A stretch of DNA of 64,000 bases from the NCBI GenBank assembly GCA_035221665.1, contig CM069148.1, positions 45,136,001 to 45,200,000 on the forward strand. Direction: 5' to 3'. Source of the DNA: Okamejei kenojei. Its lineage: Eukaryota. Below, piece after piece: positions 5,013 to 64,000 of the stretch (positions are counted from its first letter, which is position 1; each line of letters begins with the position of its first letter). The notes beneath the pieces are model-generated. The model ran no database searches. It saw only the letters and a program-made list of their open reading frames with translations, and was not told where the DNA came from. The position numbers and the translations under genes are program-made.

Positions 5013-5512
5013 NNNNNNNNNNNNNNNNNNNNNNNNNNNNNNNNNNNNNNNNNNNNNNNNNNNNNNNNNNNNNNNNNNNNNNNNNNNNNNNNNNNNNNNN
5101 NNNNNNNNNNNNNNNNNNNNNNNNNNNNNNNNNNNNNNNNNNNNNNNNNNNNNNNNNNNNNNNNNNNNNNNNNNNNNNNNNNNNNNNNNNNNNNNNNNNN
5201 NNNNNNNNNNNNNNNNNNNNNNNNNNNNNNNNNNNNNNNNNNNNNNNNNNNNNNNNNNNNNNNNNNNNNNNNNNNNNNNNNNNNNNNNNNNNNNNNNNNN
5301 NNNNNNNNNNNNNNNNNNNNNNNNNNNNNNNNNNNNNNNNNNNNNNNNNNNNNNNNNNNNNNNNNNNNNNNNNNNNNNNNNNNNNNNNNNNNNNNNNNNN
5401 NNNNNNNNNNNNNNNNNNNNNNNNNNNNNNNNNNNNNNNNNNNNNNNNNNNNNNNNNNNNNNNNNNNNNNNNNNNNNNNNNNNNNNNNNNNNNNNNNNNN
5501 NNNNNNNNNNNN
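5013..5512. other. Assembly gap (500 N)
   Basis: Exactly 500 N. The round size suggests a scaffolding placeholder. Confidence 0.99.
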
Positions 5513-25149: not shown

Positions 25150-27105
25150 TATTCGTTAGCAGTCTTGTTGTGCGTGGCCCCTTGGGCAAGAGTGACCATA
25201 ATATGATTGAGTTCTTCATTAGGATGGAGAGTGACATAATTAAGTCAGAAACAAGGGTTCTGAACTTAAACAAAGGTAACTTTGAAGGTATGAGACGTGA
25301 ATTGGCCAAGATAGACTGGCAAGTGATTCTTAAAGGGTTGACAGTGGATGTGCAATGGTAGGTATTTAAAGACTGCATGGATTAACTACAACAATTGTTC
25401 ATCCCAGTTTGGCAAATGAATAAATCAGGGAAGGTAGTGCATCCATGGATAACAAGGGAAATCAGGGATAGTATAAAAACAAAAGATGAAGCATACAAAT
25501 TAGCCAGAATAAGCAGCCCACCAGAGGACTAGGAGAAATTCAGAGTCCAGCAGAGGAGGACAAAGGGCTTAATTAGGAAAGGGAAAATAGATTATGAAAG
25601 AAAACTGGCAGGGAACATAAAAACTGACTGCAAAAGTTTTTAAAGATATGTGAAGAGAAAGAGATTAGTTAAAACAAATGTAGGTTCCTTGCAGTCAGAA
25701 ACAGGTGAATTGATCATGGGGAAACAAGGACATGGCAGACCAATTGAATAACTACTTTGGTTCTGTCTTCACTAAGGAAGACATAAATAATCTGCCAGAA
25801 ATAGCAGGGGACCGGGGGTCAAATAAGGTGGAGGAACTGAATGAAATCCAGGTTAGCCGGGAAGTGGTGTTGGGTAAATTGAGTGGATTAAAGGCCGATA
25901 AATCCCCATGGCCAGATAGTCTGCATCCCAGAGTACTCAAGGAAGTAGCCACATAAATAGTGGATGCATTGGTGATAATTTTTCAAAACTCCTTAGATTC
26001 TGGAGTAGTTCCTGAGGATTGGAGGGTAGCTAATGTAACCCCACTTTTAAAAAAAGGAGGGAGAGAGAAAACGGGGAATTACAGACCAGTTAGTCTAACA
26101 TCGGTAGTGGGGAAAATGCTAGTCAGTTATTAAAGATGGGATAGCAGTACATTTGGAAAGTGGTGAAATCAATGGACAAAGTCAGCATGGATTTACGAAA
26201 GGTAAATCATGTCTGACGAATCTTATAGAATTTTTCGAAGATGTAACTAGTAGAGTGGATAAGGGAGAACCAGTGGATGTGTTATATCTAGACTTTCAGA
26301 AGGCTTTCGACAAGATCCCACATAAGAGATTAGTATACAAACTTAAAGCACACGGTATTGGGGGTTCAGTATTGATGTGGATAGAGAACTGGCTGGCAGA
26401 CAGGAAGCAAAGGGTAGGAGTAAACGGGTCCTTTTCAGAATGGCAGGCAGTGACTAGTGGGGTACCCCAGCTATTTACAATATATATTAATGATTTGGAT
26501 GAGGAAATTGAATGCAACATCTCCAAGTTTACGGATGACACTAAGCTGGAGGGTAGTGTTAGGTGTGAGGAGGATGCTAGGAGGCTGCAAGGTGACTTGG
26601 ATAGGCTGGGTGAGTGGGCAAATGCATGGCAGATGCAGTATAATGTGGATAAATGTGAGGTTATCCACTTTGGTGGCAAAAACAGGAGGATAGACGATTA
26701 TCTGAATGGTGGCAAATTAGGAAAAGGGGAGATGCAACGAGACCTGGGTGTCATGGTACACCAATCATTGAAAATAGGCATGCAGGTGCAGCAGGCAGTG
26801 AAGAAAGCAAATGGTATGTTAGCATTCATAGCAAAAGGATTTGAGTATAGGAGCAGGGAGGTTCTACTGCAGTTGTACAGGGTTTTGGTGAGACCACACT
26901 TGGTGTATTGTGTACAGTTTTGGTCTCCAAATCTGAGGAAATACATTCTTGCCATAGAGGGGCTACAGGGAAGGTTCACCAGACTGATTCCTGGGATGTC
27001 AGGACTTTAATATGAGGAAAAACTGGATAGACTTGGCTTGTACTCGCTAGAATTTAGAAGACTGAGGGGGGATCTGATAGAAACTTACAAAATTCTTCAG
27101 GGGTT
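25150..27105 (+). mobile_element. Relatively young 5'-truncated CR1-type (HER1-like) LINE, ORF2 with stops and frameshifts
   Basis: PLGKSDH (end of the endonuclease) and RT ORF 26153-27010: SQHGFTKGKSCLTNL, LDFQKAFD, YINDLD, KFTDDTK, LVRPHL. Confidence 0.95.
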
Positions 27106-27451
27106 AGAAACATAGAAATTAGGTGCAGGAGCAGGCCATTCGGCCCTTCAAGCCTGCACCGCCATTCAATATGATCATGGCTGATCAGTATCCCGTACCT
27201 GCCTTCTCTCCATACTCCCTGGTCCCTTTAGCCACAAGGGCCACATCTAACTCCCTCTTAAATATACCCAATGAACTGGCCTCAACTACCTTCTGTGGCA
27301 GAGAATTCCAGAGACTCACCACTCTCTGCGTGAAAAATGTTTTCCTCATCTCGGTTCTAAAGGATTTCCCCCTTATCCTTAGACTGTGACCCCTTATTCT
27401 GGACCTCCCCAACATCGGGAACAATCTTCCTGCATCTAGCCTATCCAACCC
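27106..27451 (-). mobile_element. Inverted 3' end of the same LINE family
   Basis: Reverse complement reads GLDRLDAGRLFPMLGRSRIRGHSL through to the ctatgtttct tail. Confidence 0.9.
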
Positions 27452-27911
27452 GTTTTGGTCTCCTAATCTGAGGAAAGACATTCTTGCCATAGAGGGAGTA
27501 CAGAGAAGGTTCATCAGACTGATTCCTGGGATGGCATGACTTCCATATGAAGAAAGACTGGATAGACTTGGCTTGTACTCGCTGGAATTTAGAAGATTGA
27601 GGGGTGATCTCATAGAGACTTACAAAATTCTTAAGGGGTTGGACAGGCTAGATGCAGGAACATTGTTCCCGATGTTGGGGAAGTCCAGGACAAGGGGTCA
27701 CAGTTTAAGGAGAAGGGGGAAGTCTTTTAGGACCGAGATGAGAAAATCGTTTTTCACACAGAGAGTGGTGAATATGTGGAATTCTCTGCCACAGAAGGTA
27801 GTTGAGGCCAGTTCGTTGGCCATATTTAAGAGGGAGTTGGATGTGGCCCTTGTGGCTGAAGAGATCAGGGGGTATGGAGAGAAGGCAGGTACAGGATACT
27901 GAGTTGGATGT
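27452..27911 (+). mobile_element. Second plus-strand copy of the LINE 3' region
   Basis: Repeats about 26917-27105 (ttttggtctcc.aatctgagg) and continues [28 protein letters not shown]. Confidence 0.9.
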
Positions 27912-35247: not shown

Positions 35248-35469
35248 TCAGGCGTGGGGAGTTGCTTGCTGGCTCTCTGTAAAGGGCAGATCCTGGGATT
35301 TCTGCATGATGAAAACTGCCACGTCAGCCAGGGCCACTGGGTATTCCTCGAGCAGGGTCCCACCATCAAACACCTGGGCTGTGTTCACATCTTTCCACTG
35401 GTAGCCATTTCCTGGTAGGTAGATGTCCCTGTGGACTTTGCCCGGCTCTGTCACTGGTGCCACCAGTAC
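35248..35469 (-). CDS. SITS-binding protein-like GH31 terminal exon
   Basis: Acceptor cccacacctag. Encodes VLVAPVTEPGKVHRDIYLPGNGYQWKDVNTAQVFDGGTLLEEYPVALADVAVFIMQKSQDLPFTESQQATPHA then TGA. LVAPV...YLP..W marks the GH31 C-terminal beta domain. Confidence 0.93.
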   Translation of the reverse strand, partial: VLVAPVTEPGKVHRDIYLPGNGYQWKDVNTAQVFDGGTLLEEYPVALADVAVFIMQKSQDLPFTESQQATPHA

Positions 35470-37653: not shown

Positions 37654-37833
37654 CTCGTCACCAATCAGAAACTCATCGTTGATAATGAAGGTACTTGGGT
37701 CACTCGGGCTGATCCACCACAGCGGCCGAAACACAGGATGCCCGAGGGATGCCCACTCTGCAGCGTATTTCAGGAGAAGTGGCACGACAAAAGCCCGGTG
37801 TCTGTGTATATACGACCGGGTCACATTCACAAT
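37654..37833 (-). CDS. SITS-binding protein-like GH31 exon
   Basis: Acceptor ctgttccag, donor gtagga, 180 nt. Encodes IVNVTRSYIHRHRAFVVPLLLKYAAEWASLGHPVFRPLWWISPSDPSTFIINDEFLIGDE, with GxPxxRPLWW and DEFLxG motifs. Confidence 0.94.
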
Positions 37834-41598: not shown

Positions 41599-41720
41599 CC
41601 AGGTCTCCCCAAAGACCCATGGCGGAGTGCTGAAAGACATCACAGGTAGAAAAGTCACAACCTGCAGCCACCGGATAAAGAGCTCCTCGTCTGCCAGAAA
41701 ACCATTTGTCAGCGAACCTC
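41599..41720 (-). CDS. SITS-binding protein-like GH31 exon
   Basis: Acceptor gatcttccag, donor gtacgt, 122 nt, phase 1/0. Encodes (G)GSLTNGFLADEELFIRWLQVVTFLPVMSFSTPPWVFGETW, with the GH31 ELxxRWxQxxxFxP motif. Confidence 0.93.
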
Positions 41721-41805: not shown

Positions 41806-43543
41806 CAGTGCATTCAGAAAGTACTCAGACCCCTTCACTATTTCCACATTTTGTTACGTTACAGCCTTATTCTAAAAAGGATTATTATTATTTTTTTTTA
41901 AATCATTAATCTTTTTTTCTTCCCTTTTTTCCTCTTTTTTTGTATGGCTTTGTAAATATTTGATTAGTGTATAAATGTAAATAATTTGGTGTACATATAG
42001 CTGCTGGTGTACATATAGCTGCTAAATTTGTATAAAATAATTATAAGCAGTTGAATAATGGGTGGGAATTAATAAGCTTTGGCTTCTTCCTGCTCCTTTT
42101 CAGACACATACGATTCATTTATTTATAGATACTGTTTATGACACTTGATAAATATTCTTGTTTTGTTTTTTGTATGGCGTTTCACACATGCTTTTTATTG
42201 TTTTATTCTGTTCGAAATAAAGAACTAAATAAAAATAAATAATACATATAATCTACACACAATACCCCATAATGAAAGTGAAAACAGGCGTTTAGAATTT
42301 TTTGCAAAGTAATTAAAAGGAAATAACTGAATTATTACATTTACATAAGCGTTCAGACCCTTTACTCAATGCTTTGTTGAGGCCCCTTTGGCAGCGATTA
42401 CAGCCTCAAGTCTTCTTGGGTATGATGCTACAAGCTTGACACACCTGTATTTGGGTAATTTCTCCCATTCTTCTCTGCAGATCCTCTCAAGCTCTGACAG
42501 GTTGGATGGGGAGCATCGATGCACAGCTATTTTCAGGTCCCTCCAGAGATGTTTGATCGGGTTCAAGTCCGGGCCACTCAAGGACATTCACAGACTTGTC
42601 ACAAAGCCACTCCTGCGTTGTCTTGGCTGTGTGCTTAGGGTCGTTGTCCTGTTGGAAGGTGAACCTCCGCCAGTCTGAGGTCCAGAACGCTCTGGAGCAG
42701 GTTTTCATCAAGGATTTCTCTGTACTATGCTTTGTTCATCTTTCCCTCAATCCTGACTAGTCTCCCAGTTCCTGTCGCTGAAAAACATCCCCACAGCATG
42801 ATGCTGCCACCACCATGCTTCACTGTAGGTTTGGTATTGGCCAGGTGATGAGCGGTGCCTGGTTTCCTCCAGACGTGTCGCTTGCCATTCAGGCCATAGA
42901 GTTCAATCTTGGTTTCATCTGACCAGACTATCTAGTTTGTCATGACTTTTGGCAAACTCCAAGCGGGCTGTCATGTGCGTTTTACTGAGTGGCTTCCGTC
43001 TGTGGTCAGTTTGGCTGGGCAGCCAGCTCTATGAAGAGTCCTGGTGGTTCCAAAGTTCTTCCATTTAAGAATGACGGAGGCCACTGTGCTCTTCGGGATC
43101 TGCAATGCTGCAGAAATTGTTTTATACCCTTCCCCAAATCTATGTCTCGACACAACCCTGCCTCGGACGTCTACGGACAATTCCTTCATCTTCATGGCTT
43201 GGTTTTTGATCTGACATGCACTGTCAACTAAGGGGCCTTGTATAGACAGGTGTGTGCCTTTCCAAATCATGTCCAATCAATTTAATTTACCACTGGTGGA
43301 CTCCAATCAAGTTGCAGAAACATCTCAAGGATAATCAATGGAAACAGGATGAACTTAAGCTCAGTTTTGAGTGACATAGCAAAGGGTCTAAATACTTGTG
43401 TAAATGTTATATTTCACTTATTTATTTTTATTTACTTTGCAAAAATTTCTAAACACCTGTTTTCGCTTCTTCATTCTGGGGTATTGTGTGTAGATTGATG
43501 ATTTAAAAAAAAAGAACCAATCAATTTTAAAATCAGGCTGTAA
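41806..43543 (-). mobile_element. Decayed Tc1/mariner (Tc1 family) transposon
   Basis: Left end TA|cagtgcattcagaaagt. Transposase pieces: KELSVDVRGRVVSRH...GYKTIS, FTFQQDNDPKHTAK, PDLNPIKHLW, LEAVIAAKGASTK. The right TIR is truncated, and the left TIR carries an AT-rich insertion (about 41905-42250). Confidence 0.92.
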
Positions 43544-45218: not shown

Positions 45219-45355
45219 CTATTGCATCTGGAATGAAGAAGCTGTATCCCAGCAAGCTGTAGTGAAGGACAGAGGGAATGAGGCCCTTTAATCCTGCATA
45301 ACTCCAGTCAGACTCTCGGGGTACCATTCGAACAAACAGTGGCAAGTGAGCGGCC
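45219..45355 (-). CDS. SITS-binding protein-like GH31 exon (acid/base region)
   Basis: Acceptor gtactgtag, donor gtaata, 137 nt, phase 2/1. Encodes (R)AAHLPLFVRMVPRESDWSYAGLKGLIPSVLHYSLLGYSFFIPDAI(G), resembling the MYORG pattern GLxSLIPxVL...LGYxFxxPDxxGG. Confidence 0.92.
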
Positions 45356-46275
45356 CTACAGTACACAAGACATATATGAACAACTCTGTCACATCCTCAC
45401 TCGTTAAGTAAAGCAGCCCATTATCAAATGATGTCAAAAATCATGATAAAGGAAATGAAGCAAGATACAGAGAAAGGTAGTGAGAGAGAGACAGCGAGAG
45501 AACTGCTACATAAAGGGAGATGGAGCGGGCAAAGGGCAGAGAGAGCTAAAGTCTACAGCACACATCACAGCGATAAGAGAGATTGCAGCATTAGGTGACA
45601 GATTTGGGTAGGGCAAGAGCAGGAGATAAAGAAAGCTCCATCGGGAGATATGGAGATTCAGTTAGAGTTTACAGGAAGCTGGAGTAACAAGAGAGAGATT
45701 CCTAGATAGCAGCAAGATAAAGCAAAGGGGGGGGGGGGGGAGAGCGAGAGTGCTGTACACAGGGAGATGATGAATGAGAAACAGATAATGATGCACAGTG
45801 TTACAGAATGGTTACAACAAGGAGGGAGGCAATTCAGGCTATCATGTATATCCAGACTCCATGTAACAATAATCCACACCCCTACCCTCTCCCAATTGCC
45901 ATGCAAATTATTTTATTTTTAAGACAATTTTTTTTAAAACAATTTTTACAATAAAATGTTAAAACAAATGTTCTCAATGCTGCTTGTGTGAGGTTGTGTG
46001 CTCCAATTGTTGCATTTCCAATCTTTCACCAGTAAACACATCACACAAATTCACCTGGAGCAACAAGGCACTGTAGAAAAGCACTTCCTTTCTTTACACT
46101 GGGCAAAATACCCGTGTTTGATTCTCAATGGCAGGGGTTTGGAGCCAAGGATTGTAATAGTCCTATGTGATAGTCTCACTGTGACATGCTCCATCTTCTG
46201 CCCAGATAACTTCCATTCCATTCCCTTTGTCCATTCCCAATTCTCTCTCGTCACCATCCCTCCCTTCAGACAAAA

Positions 46276-46492
46276 TGTGTAGGAAGGAACTGCAGATGCT
46301 GGTTTAAACCAAAGATAAACACAAAAAGCTGGAGTAACTCAACCTTACAGGCGGCATCTTTGGAGAGAATGAATGAGTGACGTTTCAGATTGAGACCCTG
46401 AAGAAGGGTCTCGACCTGAAATGTCACCCATTCCTTATCTCCAGAGATGCTGCCAGTCCCGCTGAGTTACTCCAGCTTTTTGTGTCTATCTT
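46276..46492. mobile_element. Palindromic Penelope-derived element (head-to-head terminal repeats)
   Basis: Arms meet at tgacgtttcagattgagaccc-tgaaga-agggtctcgacctgaaatgtca. Degenerate 15-bp direct flanks catccctcccttcag / cattcctcgcttcag. Confidence 0.78.
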
Positions 46493-47164
46493 CATTCCTC
46501 GCTTCAGGTTGTTCTCAGTTGGTGGTCCCCAGCTCCCAGTCATCTTCACAATGGAGATTCAGTCTGCCACAGCCCCGCACCAGGTTGCACTCATTGCCGT
46601 TCAGGTTCCTATCCACCTACAGTCTGCTTATTCTTTAATCTCCAGTTCAGATACTCTCAGCCTACAGTCACAATTACTCCAGCACAGGCAAGCTTCCATA
46701 TCAGTTACTCTCAGCCCCATTTACTATTTCCTGAGGAACACACACAATTACTTTCAGTCTCCAGTGCATCGTCTCAGTCATAAAGCTGCAATCCTGGTTA
46801 TTCATTGTCTCAGTTCATTTTACTCTCCGTTTCTGTCTGGTTTAGCCTCCGACACGGTGACTCTTAGTACCAGTCGTTTATTCTCAATCCTCATTCCTGG
46901 CCACTCCCAATCCTCAAACTCGTTGGTATAGTCTTATTTATTTTTGGCCACAGTCCCAGTTACCCTGTTTCGCCTAGTTTCTCCTAGTGTAGGTTGCTGT
47001 CCTTCTCAGTGCTGTTTATTCTCAGCCCACAGCCCAAGTTATCAGACACAGCACTAGCCATGTTATATCTGTAATCTTGGTTACTCTTTGCCCCATTCCC
47101 GTTCATTCTCAGTCTGCAGTTGAGGTAACTGTTGATCAGCAGAGTTGGTTTCAAGCATACATAC

Positions 47165-47433
47165 CTAGTGGCAGCTGATATAATTGTTGCATTTCCCAGC
47201 TTCTGAGCCAGCAGTGCAAACTGGTTGATGTATTCATCGCCACACTGTCGGCAGGGATGATGCTGCGCCTGCCACAAATAGGGGCTTCCCACTCCCACTT
47301 CCAGAGTGATATAGTTGACGTCGAACCGCCTCTGAAGGCTACGGACCTGCTCGATGAACCAGCCCTGTGCCTCCTCATCGCTGATGTTCAACTTCACCGC
47401 AAACCTCCCCCTCCACTTCATCAGGAGGGGTCC
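47165..47433 (-). CDS. SITS-binding protein-like GH31 exon (nucleophile region)
   Basis: Acceptor cttctcttgcccag, donor gtatgt, 269 nt, phase 0/2. Encodes GPLLMKWRGRFAVKLNISDEEAQGWFIEQVRSLQRRFDVNYITLEVGVG...LGNATIISAAT. Corresponds to the GH31 'LDFTNPEAxxW' segment and the nucleophile strand. Confidence 0.88.
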
Positions 47434-53518: not shown

Positions 53519-53689
53519 TTGAGATCCATTTGCTGTTGATGGAAGTCTGAGCCACAAATGTTCTCGTCCTTCTTGCAAAGTAGTCTGGAAGTGGAGGGAA
53601 TCAATGGTGGTGAAAGGAGAGAGTGTGATGGACAACCTTAGTTGACGTAGGCCACGGTATGTGTTCTGCAGTTGAAGTGTCCCTTGTCC
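53519..53689 (-). CDS. SITS-binding protein-like gene (GH31, MYORG-related): most 5' exon found in the window
   Basis: Minus-strand acceptor tctgtttgcag, donor gtacat, 171 nt, phase 0/0. Encodes GQGTLQLQNTYRGLRQLRLSITLSPFTTIDSLHFQTTLQEGREHLWLRLPSTANGSQ and joins the next exon in frame. Confidence 0.85.
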
Positions 53690-59738: not shown

Positions 59739-60284
59739 TACCTCAGCAGACAGCAGCAGCGTGGATTGTTCACAGAGATCCATCACTCCCTCTCCTAGCC
59801 TGTAATGCTTCAGTTTTCTGGACAACATCTTCAGATTGTGCTCCAGCCTCAGTGCTGTGCCAGCCACCCTATGCGACCTCCACAGTGGCAGCCTGTGCTC
59901 CAAAGGAGCAGAGAAACAAACTACATATTAAACGCAACAATAACAAGCATAATCAATACATTTTAAAAGGACAAAGCAGTCAGGGAAAAGGAAAACAGTG
60001 TTAAAGAGAGTGAAAACTGGGTGGTGGGAGGGGAGCAGAGAGGAGTGGGGATAAGAAAGAAAAGGAGGCAAACGAGAGAACAGAATTATAAATGGAGCCA
60101 TTGATTTTAGGAATAGGCAATAATTGGGTATTAACATCAGGCAGACAGAATCACAGGTTATGGGGACAAGAGAGACAATTGGGAAAAGAAGGAATGAAGC
60201 AGGGCAGAATGTGAGTGAGGGATGGATGAGGAGGAGTGGATGGGTGTTACCGTTGTGAACACTAGTATGGTTATTGGAAGAGGT

Positions 60285-62725: not shown

Positions 62726-64000
62726 TTTTATATATATAAAATATATATAATATAAGGGCCGAATGCTCCTATTGTCTATTGTCAAAGACATCCAGAAATC
62801 ACTCATGCTTCTGGGTGCTCTGGCTTTATCCAAACAGACCACTGGTTGATGGGGTTGAGACAAGCTAAGAAGTCTAGACCTCGTGTTTAGCGTTATTTGT
62901 TTACTTTTGTACTATTCGTCTAACATTATTAATAAAGCAAAATATTCTTGAATATGTAGTCATCTCAAACTTCACAGAAATATGTTTGCAGATCTCTCAA
63001 GTCTTGCACTCTCTTTAAAACTGTATAGACTTGTTTATGTTATCTCTCCCCATTCATCCTGCTGGAAGGCATCACTTCACACTTTACCATGTCAAATTTT
63101 ACCTGTCACCATTAGCCAAATTCTTTCCGTCCAAATATTGCTAACCTCCTTGTTTACTAGACTTTTGAGTTTCCTGAAATCTAGTCTAGTCTTTAAAAAT
63201 ATGCCAAATACACTCGTACAATTGTTTAAAACTGTTTATATATTGAAATATGTTCAGACCCTATGCCTGTTTCTGGTAACAATATGGAAAAACAACCCTT
63301 CACCCCCATGCTGTGCTTTCTTTTGCAAAGCAAGTTTTATACCCTGATTATTCTGATCCATTTACACAATGTTTCACTGCCATAAGATGAAAAAACATTG
63401 TTTAAAAATGAAAATTTCAGCAAACCTGTCTTTGCACAAAGCAAGTGTAGTCTTTATATTTTCACGCGAATATCCTCTATCCTCCTACGAGGTGTACAAG
63501 ATTTTTTAATTATTGTATACCTCCCTCTTGCAAGAGCTTACCATAGACTCGAAAGTGTTTGAGTGCCATAGAACATAGCGCTGATTCTTTAATCATATAA
63601 TATTCGTCTAACATTATGTGATAGTTTTATAACTGCATACAAACTGCACCGCTCTTTTCAACTTCTTCATTACACAAAAAAACAACTTGTTCAAATTAGT
63701 GACTAACAATTTGTTTTTAATTATTTTTAAATTGCAAAATGCCAATTAATTTTGTTCTTGACTATGCTGGTTGCACATTTCTGCACCATTTATATTAGAT
63801 TTATAGCTACATGGTTTATCTTTCTCCACAAATCAGACACAAATATATCACTGTGATTGCAAAAATGGAATGACATGGGAATTACCCAATCGCTACCACT
63901 GGCTATAGTGTTGTCACTATATCCAGCCTTATTTAAAACAGAGTAGTGTTACATTTGCAACCCGGTCTCCTGGCACTACCCCATATCCAAGGCAAGACTG

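Follow-up and report, generated by a model that had tools for sequence, protein, structure and literature searches.

Some membrane proteins carry a hydrolase-like domain without catalytic residues, as is the case for Klotho (GH1) and DPP6/DPP10. The same holds for the GH13-like 4F2hc (SLC3A2) and rBAT (SLC3A1), which are single-pass proteins with such a domain on the luminal side and act as the heavy chains of amino acid transporters. The SITS-binding protein of Torpedo (SP105; UniRef SP15_TETCF, here P0002) was reportedly cloned in 1989 and is said to be an abundant electric-organ membrane protein that forms a disulfide-linked dimer and is not the chloride channel. It belongs to GH31, so its likeness to 4F2hc and rBAT is one of analogy and not of family homology.

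Within GH31, the SITS-binding proteins resemble the alpha-galactosidase MYORG (PDB 7qqf, 7qqg and 7qqh; PMC9491548, excerpted portions) in being built as type II membrane proteins with an N-terminal beta domain, a barrel that carries an insert and a single C-terminal beta domain, and in their interface residues. The same portions of that paper name D463 as the nucleophile and D520 as the acid/base of MYORG, with the D520N mutant catalytically impaired, and list D213, W321, D353, D354, W426, K461, D463, R504, R517 and D520 as ligand contacts. Galactose is held by W321, D353, D354, W426, K461, R504 and R517, and the +1 glucose by D213, R504 and W426; both D354 and W426 contact the 6-OH, while D463 lies at the ring. 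Dimerisation is ascribed there to F402, V406, L419, L422 and I429. Moreover, MYORG binds the transporter SLC20A2 in the ER according to an excerpt of the review PMC12404772. The SITS-binding proteins differ from MYORG in that most of these ligand contacts are replaced, and in that they form a separate clade already in lamprey.

The window analysed here is a stretch of 64,000 nucleotides from Okamejei kenojei. A tblastn search of the window with the two best matches of exon 47167-47433 identified a SITS-binding protein gene of seven minus-strand coding exons, in which every acceptor is AG, every donor is GT and the phases are 0,0,2,1,0,0. The initial annotation had described six exons; these six, with their AG/GT borders and phases 0,2,1,0,0, are real, but a seventh coding exon upstream, at 59892-59742 and with phase 0 after it, had been missed. 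The spliced seven-exon frame encodes 416 residues with its sole stop at the end, and aligns without gaps to residues 280-695 of P0001, the SITS-binding protein-like sequence of Amblyraja radiata (95.2% identity). Identity over the 416 residues is 81% to the Torpedo (Tetronarce californica) protein, an orthologue that carries the same Glu and Pro at the catalytic positions and differs in nothing of substance, and 53% to zebrafish, where si:ch211-236l14.4 is the orthologue. As judged from its sequence, the gene in the window is intact and codes for the SITS-binding protein. Its features are given below in P0001 numbering, with exons placed by tblastn and the spliced frame and single residues by alignment to MYORG, and with further evidence named where it applies.

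59742..59892, minus strand: coding exon, residues 280-329, barrel strands 1-2
59873-59871, minus strand: His at the position of MYORG W321
59774-59772, minus strand: Cys at the position of MYORG D353
59771-59769, minus strand: Glu (Glu320) at the position of MYORG D354
53519..53689, minus strand: coding exon, residues 330-386, where the insert region begins, with sequon NGS; contig pieces end at its borders
53519..53689, minus strand: the same exon carries F363 and L367, at the MYORG dimer-interface positions F402 and V406
47165..47433, minus strand: coding exon, residues 387-476, with sequons NIS and NAT
47412-47410, minus strand: Arg at the position of MYORG W426
47307-47305, minus strand: Thr at the position of MYORG K461
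47299..47301, minus strand: GAA, Glu431 in NYITLEVG, nucleophile position (MYORG D463), from the codon and the alignments
47178-47176, minus strand: Ser at the position of MYORG R504
45219..45355, minus strand: coding exon, residues 476-522
45330-45328, minus strand: Arg485 (MYORG R517)
45319..45321, minus strand: CCC, Pro488 in FVRMVPRESDW, acid/base position (MYORG D520), from the codon and the alignments
45309-45307, minus strand: Asp492
45228-45226, minus strand: Asp519 (MYORG D551)
41599..41720, minus strand: coding exon, residues 522-562; one contig links it to the two exons that follow
37654..37833, minus strand: coding exon, residues 563-622, with sequon NVT; also supported by contigs
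35248..35469, minus strand: final coding exon, with residues 623-695, the stop and the GH31 C-terminal beta-sandwich; also supported by Pfam and contigs

Four public runs, none recorded as RNA and one flagged as probably DNA, come from this or a closely related species and were compared with the window as contigs. One contig of 556 bases joins the last three exons with one letter different, two further contigs join the last two exons, and the exons at 53.6, 47.2 and 45.3 kb have pieces that end at their borders. These contigs are spliced sequence and carry no information about tissue or level. For residues 1-279, with the membrane helix and the N-terminal beta domain, tblastn returned no credible match within the window, and their exons presumably lie beyond position 64000. 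The four N-glycosylation sequons that had been proposed (NGS, NIS, NAT and NVT) are all present in the spliced frame, and NGS is not conserved among orthologues (5/235 listed clusters). Between the exons at 45.3 and 41.7 kb, the intron contains broken transposase pieces (42350-43280) that we take to be Tc1-like from their motifs, and reverse transcriptase fragments of a LINE, presumably CR1-like on the same grounds, lie downstream of the gene at 26123-27007 (plus strand) and 27188-27619 (minus strand). An assembly gap of 500 N occupies 5013-5512.

The protein is predicted to have a complete MYORG-like GH31 fold that comprises an N-terminal beta domain, the barrel and a proximal beta domain. 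The model of P0001 was built from alignment A2, which includes active enzymes (pLDDT 89.5, pTM 0.89); the model from orthologues alone has a pLDDT of 55.7. A2 combines 30 rows of SITS-binding proteins (SITS rows) with 110 rows from the set of 141 representatives P0129-P0269, after removal of fragments and long rows. MYORG takes ranks 1-10 in Foldseek (E 4.5e-53), and is also the top match of a second structure aligner (Z 42.9, rmsd 2.6 A over 583 residues, 27% identity). A PDB search with the single exon 47167-47433 returned two matches at chance level only. In Pfam, P0001 scores 72.4 bits for PF21365 (cut-off 24.4) and a marginal 24.6 for PF01055 (cut-off 23.5); both families are above cut-off in four of five proteins, and the C-terminally shorter P0005 likewise passes both.

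The two catalytic positions of this fold can be located in the SITS-binding protein in three ways. A phmmer search against PDB 7qqf/7qqh pairs E431 with D463 and P488 with D520, gap-free nearby (E 8.7e-74), and the D520N mutant chain in the PDB marks the acid/base column in the phmmer alignment. The same register is found with no gap in a 140-row MAFFT alignment, and again in a profile-profile alignment of 99 orthologues against 37 intact-site relatives (probability 100, E 1.4e-109). In the predicted model E431 ends strand 427-430 and P488 comes after strand 483-485. The earlier claim that Glu at 47301-47299 and Pro at 45321-45319 take the place of both catalytic Asp is thus borne out by the codons, read as GAA and CCC, and by three concordant alignments. 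Measured against the features of retaining GH31 enzymes, the protein has no Asp nucleophile after strand 4 and no Asp acid/base after strand 6.

The orthologue set combines the best 120 of 302 and the best 120 of 166 matches and comprises 235 distinct rows, none of which was dropped before counting; sharks, rays, ray-finned fish, coelacanth, lungfish, amphibians, turtles, a crocodilian, squamates and birds are represented. Column 431 holds Glu in 231 of these listed rows, Gln in two (P0051 and P0418), Arg in one and a gap in one, with Asp in none. Column 488 is more variable (P 196, A 22, S 5, Q 4, R 3, L 3, C 1 and D 1 in the same 235 rows), and its lone Asp belongs to P0434, a record that is garbled in this part of its sequence. 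Conservation of the two replacements, which the initial annotation had proposed to check, therefore holds for the Glu and in part for the Pro, which is usual (196/235 listed) but not fixed; retention of both Asp in orthologues, which it had named as evidence to the contrary, is found in none (0/235 listed). A divergent unnamed paralogue, P0122, retains the nucleophile Asp but carries Ala at the acid/base position; together with herring P0124 it represents a second SITS-binding paralogue of bony fish, one that evolves faster. Just after Glu431 (47298-47290), batoids, sawshark and sevengill shark read VGV and other vertebrates GGE or GxE; in column 434, Glu occurs in 225 of the 235 listed rows and Val in five. 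The window protein also has C447 and C450, which are rare elsewhere, within a low-confidence loop (438-450). Nothing was found in favour of a decaying gene or an alignment artefact as the source of the missing Asp, and its probability is next to negligible, given the open frame, the canonical splice sites, the spliced contigs, the 235 listed orthologue clusters and the three gap-free alignments.

A carboxylate from the RESD motif had been suggested as a possible substitute catalyst. E490, the Glu of this motif, fails because it is Glu in only 3/235 listed rows. D492, the Asp of SDW, is Asp in 232/235 listed rows and aligns with MYORG V524, yet an Asp at this position also occurs beside the intact acid/base Asp in P0232 and P0257. 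A non-canonical enzyme could nevertheless be imagined, with Glu431 as nucleophile and with an activated leaving group, a cofactor or D492 replacing the acid/base, much as ascorbate does in myrosinase. Such an enzyme would agree with the fixation of Glu exactly at the nucleophile position and of Asp four residues past the acid/base position (232/235 listed). However, the protein has lost the residues for holding the -1 sugar, Gln stands at 431 in the orthologues P0051 and P0418, the lamprey protein has no acid there in one alignment, in a poorly aligned region, and GH31 enzymes in which the nucleophile Asp is mutated to Glu are reported to show almost no activity. We regard this explanation as very unlikely.

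Replacement of the catalytic pair is accompanied by changes throughout the sugar pocket. Among 40 relatives in A2 that were picked only for having both Asp, W321 is kept in 38 and D353, D354, W426, K461, R504 and R517 in 39 each. By comparison, the 30 SITS rows of A2 keep W321, W426, K461, R504 and D520 in no case, D353 in five and R517 in 15; D354 is replaced by Glu in all 30, W426 by Lys or Arg in 29 and R504 by Ser or Thr in 30. Altogether, of the ten MYORG ligand contacts, D213 and partly R517 are kept in SITS-binding proteins, two show Asp-to-Glu changes and six are replaced (D353 variably), so that the MYORG-type set of galactose contacts is lacking in the SITS rows. The W321, D353, K461, R504 and R517 columns have pairwise identities of 0.19-0.49 in a 20-species panel, against a barrel mean of 0.58; E320 and E431 reach 1.0 and 0.9 in the same panel, and E320 is present in 232/235 listed rows. 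Contact columns that vary among orthologues are unlike a specific sugar site, and because the further contacts are lost and their columns drift, the site was dismantled and not merely disarmed. This loss favours a dead enzyme and weakens the idea of a lectin. The earlier proposal that the fold is kept while the canonical two-Asp mechanism is impossible is accordingly supported across the listed orthologues, with four further sugar contacts lost, and the SITS-binding protein is very probably catalytically inactive.

The two near-invariant pocket Glu, E320 and E431, also fit a retained ligand site or unusual chemistry. A non-catalytic binder, either lectin-like or a cation/amine site, would use a pocket remodelled around E320, E431, D519 and D492 to hold a new ligand. 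These four residues are kept in 229-232 of the 235 listed rows and E434 in 225, the loss of the basic K461 and R504 would make the pocket more acidic, and D192 at the +1 subsite (MYORG D213) is Asp or Asn in 226/235 listed rows. On the other hand, both aromatic platforms (W321 and W426) are lost and other contact columns drift, the basic residue 394 could neutralise both Glu, and D519 and D492 occur in intact-site enzymes as well. On balance such a binder appears rather unlikely. An alternative use of the two Glu follows from the MYORG contact map, in which D354 and W426 lie at the 6-OH and D463 at the ring, so that Lys/Arg394 would sit between two lengthened acids. The combination of D354E with W426K/R may therefore plug the pocket: the emptied -1 site would be filled by a salt bridge of Glu320, Lys/Arg394 and Glu431, which would account for both Glu being fixed. 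In degenerate non-SITS rows of A2, the Glu at D354 goes with Lys or Arg at W426 in 7/8, against 6/62 without that Glu, although the rows are not independent; this pairing is a hint, as about five of the seven belong to one arthropod-type group.

Four positions that match residues of the MYORG dimer interface are hydrophobic and well kept in the SITS-binding proteins. In the 235 listed rows, F363 is found in 227, L367 in 206, Leu or Met at L390 in 229, and Leu, Phe or Tyr at F397 in 231, and a MYORG-type homodimer made by the insert region is likely from this conservation. The same residues could instead serve a heterodimer in which the SITS-binding protein tunes the activity or traffic of MYORG, and both genes coexist from lamprey onward. 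However, a homodimer also accounts for the conserved interface, and regulation of MYORG would leave the membrane helix unexplained, so we consider such a regulator quite improbable.

The orthologues possess a single hydrophobic N-terminal helix at about residues 28-52 (model helix 24-54; hydropathy peak 30-48). As its exon is outside the window, the argument from the helix rests on orthologues. Among 16 jawed vertebrates, residues 28-52 have a mean identity of 0.87, compared with 0.58 in the N-terminal domain, 0.52 and 0.73 in the two halves of the barrel and 0.66 in the C-terminal domain. In the 20-species panel the best-conserved 25-residue segment belongs to the barrel core (0.88) and the helix is second (0.86), and Cys34 of the helix is kept in 96% of listed rows. 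Between lamprey and zebrafish SITS-binding proteins, 26/43 residues are identical in the helix region and 36% overall (one pair); for MYORG of lamprey and killifish the values are 15/31 and 43% (one pair). A plain anchor would be expected to drift more, and the helix therefore probably binds something. Conservation confined to one face of the helix is absent, as 1952 of 2000 shuffles reach the observed moment, so the conservation gives no pointer to a single partner-binding face. Such conservation would also be expected from self-association or from a targeting signal. An atlas search with the helix region gave no usable match, and with the whole protein the range returned was 'Chordata' only.

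Taken as a whole, these observations are consistent with a dead, probably dimeric, single-pass membrane glycoprotein that would serve as an accessory subunit or chaperone for a membrane protein; we put this complete reading just short of an even chance. In it, the SITS-binding protein would perform no hydrolysis, and its membrane helix and luminal domain would hold a partner, for instance a transporter or channel. The accessory role is suggested by the conservation of the helix, by analogy with 4F2hc/rBAT, Klotho and DPP6/10, by the binding of MYORG to SLC20A2 and by the reported isolation of the Torpedo protein as an abundant membrane dimer of the electric organ. Among the three roles offered in the initial annotation, that of a scaffold or partner is thus the best supported, and that of a lectin for MYORG-type sugars the least.

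The replacements extend from lamprey to birds, and in lamprey a SITS-binding protein-like gene (P0132) coexists with a MYORG whose catalytic site is intact (P0206). A 33-row tree (LG+C20), with P0001 standing in for the window, unites the SITS rows including lamprey in one clade with the Torpedo protein (100/100) and vertebrate MYORG in another (98/94); a 126-row FastTree likewise puts SITS apart from MYORG. These trees place the split between the two before the origin of lampreys. The 33-row tree puts SITS among degenerate invertebrate proteins, with unstarred support (83/95 and 86/93) and on long branches. A clade of SITS with vertebrate MYORG survives the AU test (p 0.152), and an exclusive clade of SITS with four insect-type rows, a group named after the data had been seen, is rejected (p 0.018). 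The designation as a MYORG paralogue is right at the subfamily level, while the AU test leaves a duplication within vertebrates neither supported nor rejected (p 0.152). Of the 240 listed rows (best 120 of 302 and best 120 of 166), none carries a mammalian name, although birds, reptiles and amphibians are well represented; this distribution suggests that the gene may have been lost in mammals.

Missing catalytic residues are also found in other MYORG-like proteins. One or both Asp are lacking in 70/110 non-SITS representatives in A2 and in 76/118 in another alignment, counts to be read with the caution that clustering at 50% identity over-counts fast-evolving forms. The named examples come from a bug, a horseshoe crab, an annelid, a mussel and hemichordates, and include P0231 of Rhodnius prolixus, P0163 of horseshoe crab, P0172/P0222 of Owenia, P0137 and P0138. 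Loss of catalysis is, by these alignments, clearly common in the MYORG-like subfamily. P0231, annotated as a 'myogenesis-regulating glycosidase', forms with P0218, P0195, P0266 and P0199 a well-supported group on short branches without the acid/base Asp, likely an arthropod pseudoenzyme lineage. This group shares D353N, D354E, W426K and R504S with SITS but differs in that it keeps the nucleophile Asp. On a broader proposal, there would be an ancient, animal-wide lineage of dead GH31 proteins accessory to anion or phosphate transporters; the SITS-binding protein would be its vertebrate representative, would retain only the transporter-binding role that MYORG plays towards SLC20A2, and would have disappeared from mammals. 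We hold this to be decidedly unlikely.

A search of a limited set of papers found none that names the SITS-binding protein or terms a GH31 protein a pseudoenzyme, and an earlier mention is possible. The excerpted portion of PMC12027728 does not discuss the missing residues. The gene itself is already known and annotated in many genomes; the loss of its catalytic machinery was not found stated in print. Pseudoglycosidases are known in other families already.

The SITS-binding protein, known since 1989, is annotated by its family name as a glycosidase and is probably none, yet it has been retained since before the split of lampreys and jawed vertebrates. Many invertebrate 'myogenesis-regulating glycosidase' annotations are likewise attached to proteins without the catalytic pair (70/110 representatives). 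If the animal-wide branch of dead GH31 proteins were real, the non-catalytic role of MYORG would be separable from its catalytic one, and zebrafish would provide a handle on it. For the SITS-binding protein itself, the focus of study would shift from substrates to partners, and knockouts in zebrafish, frog or chicken would make its role testable.
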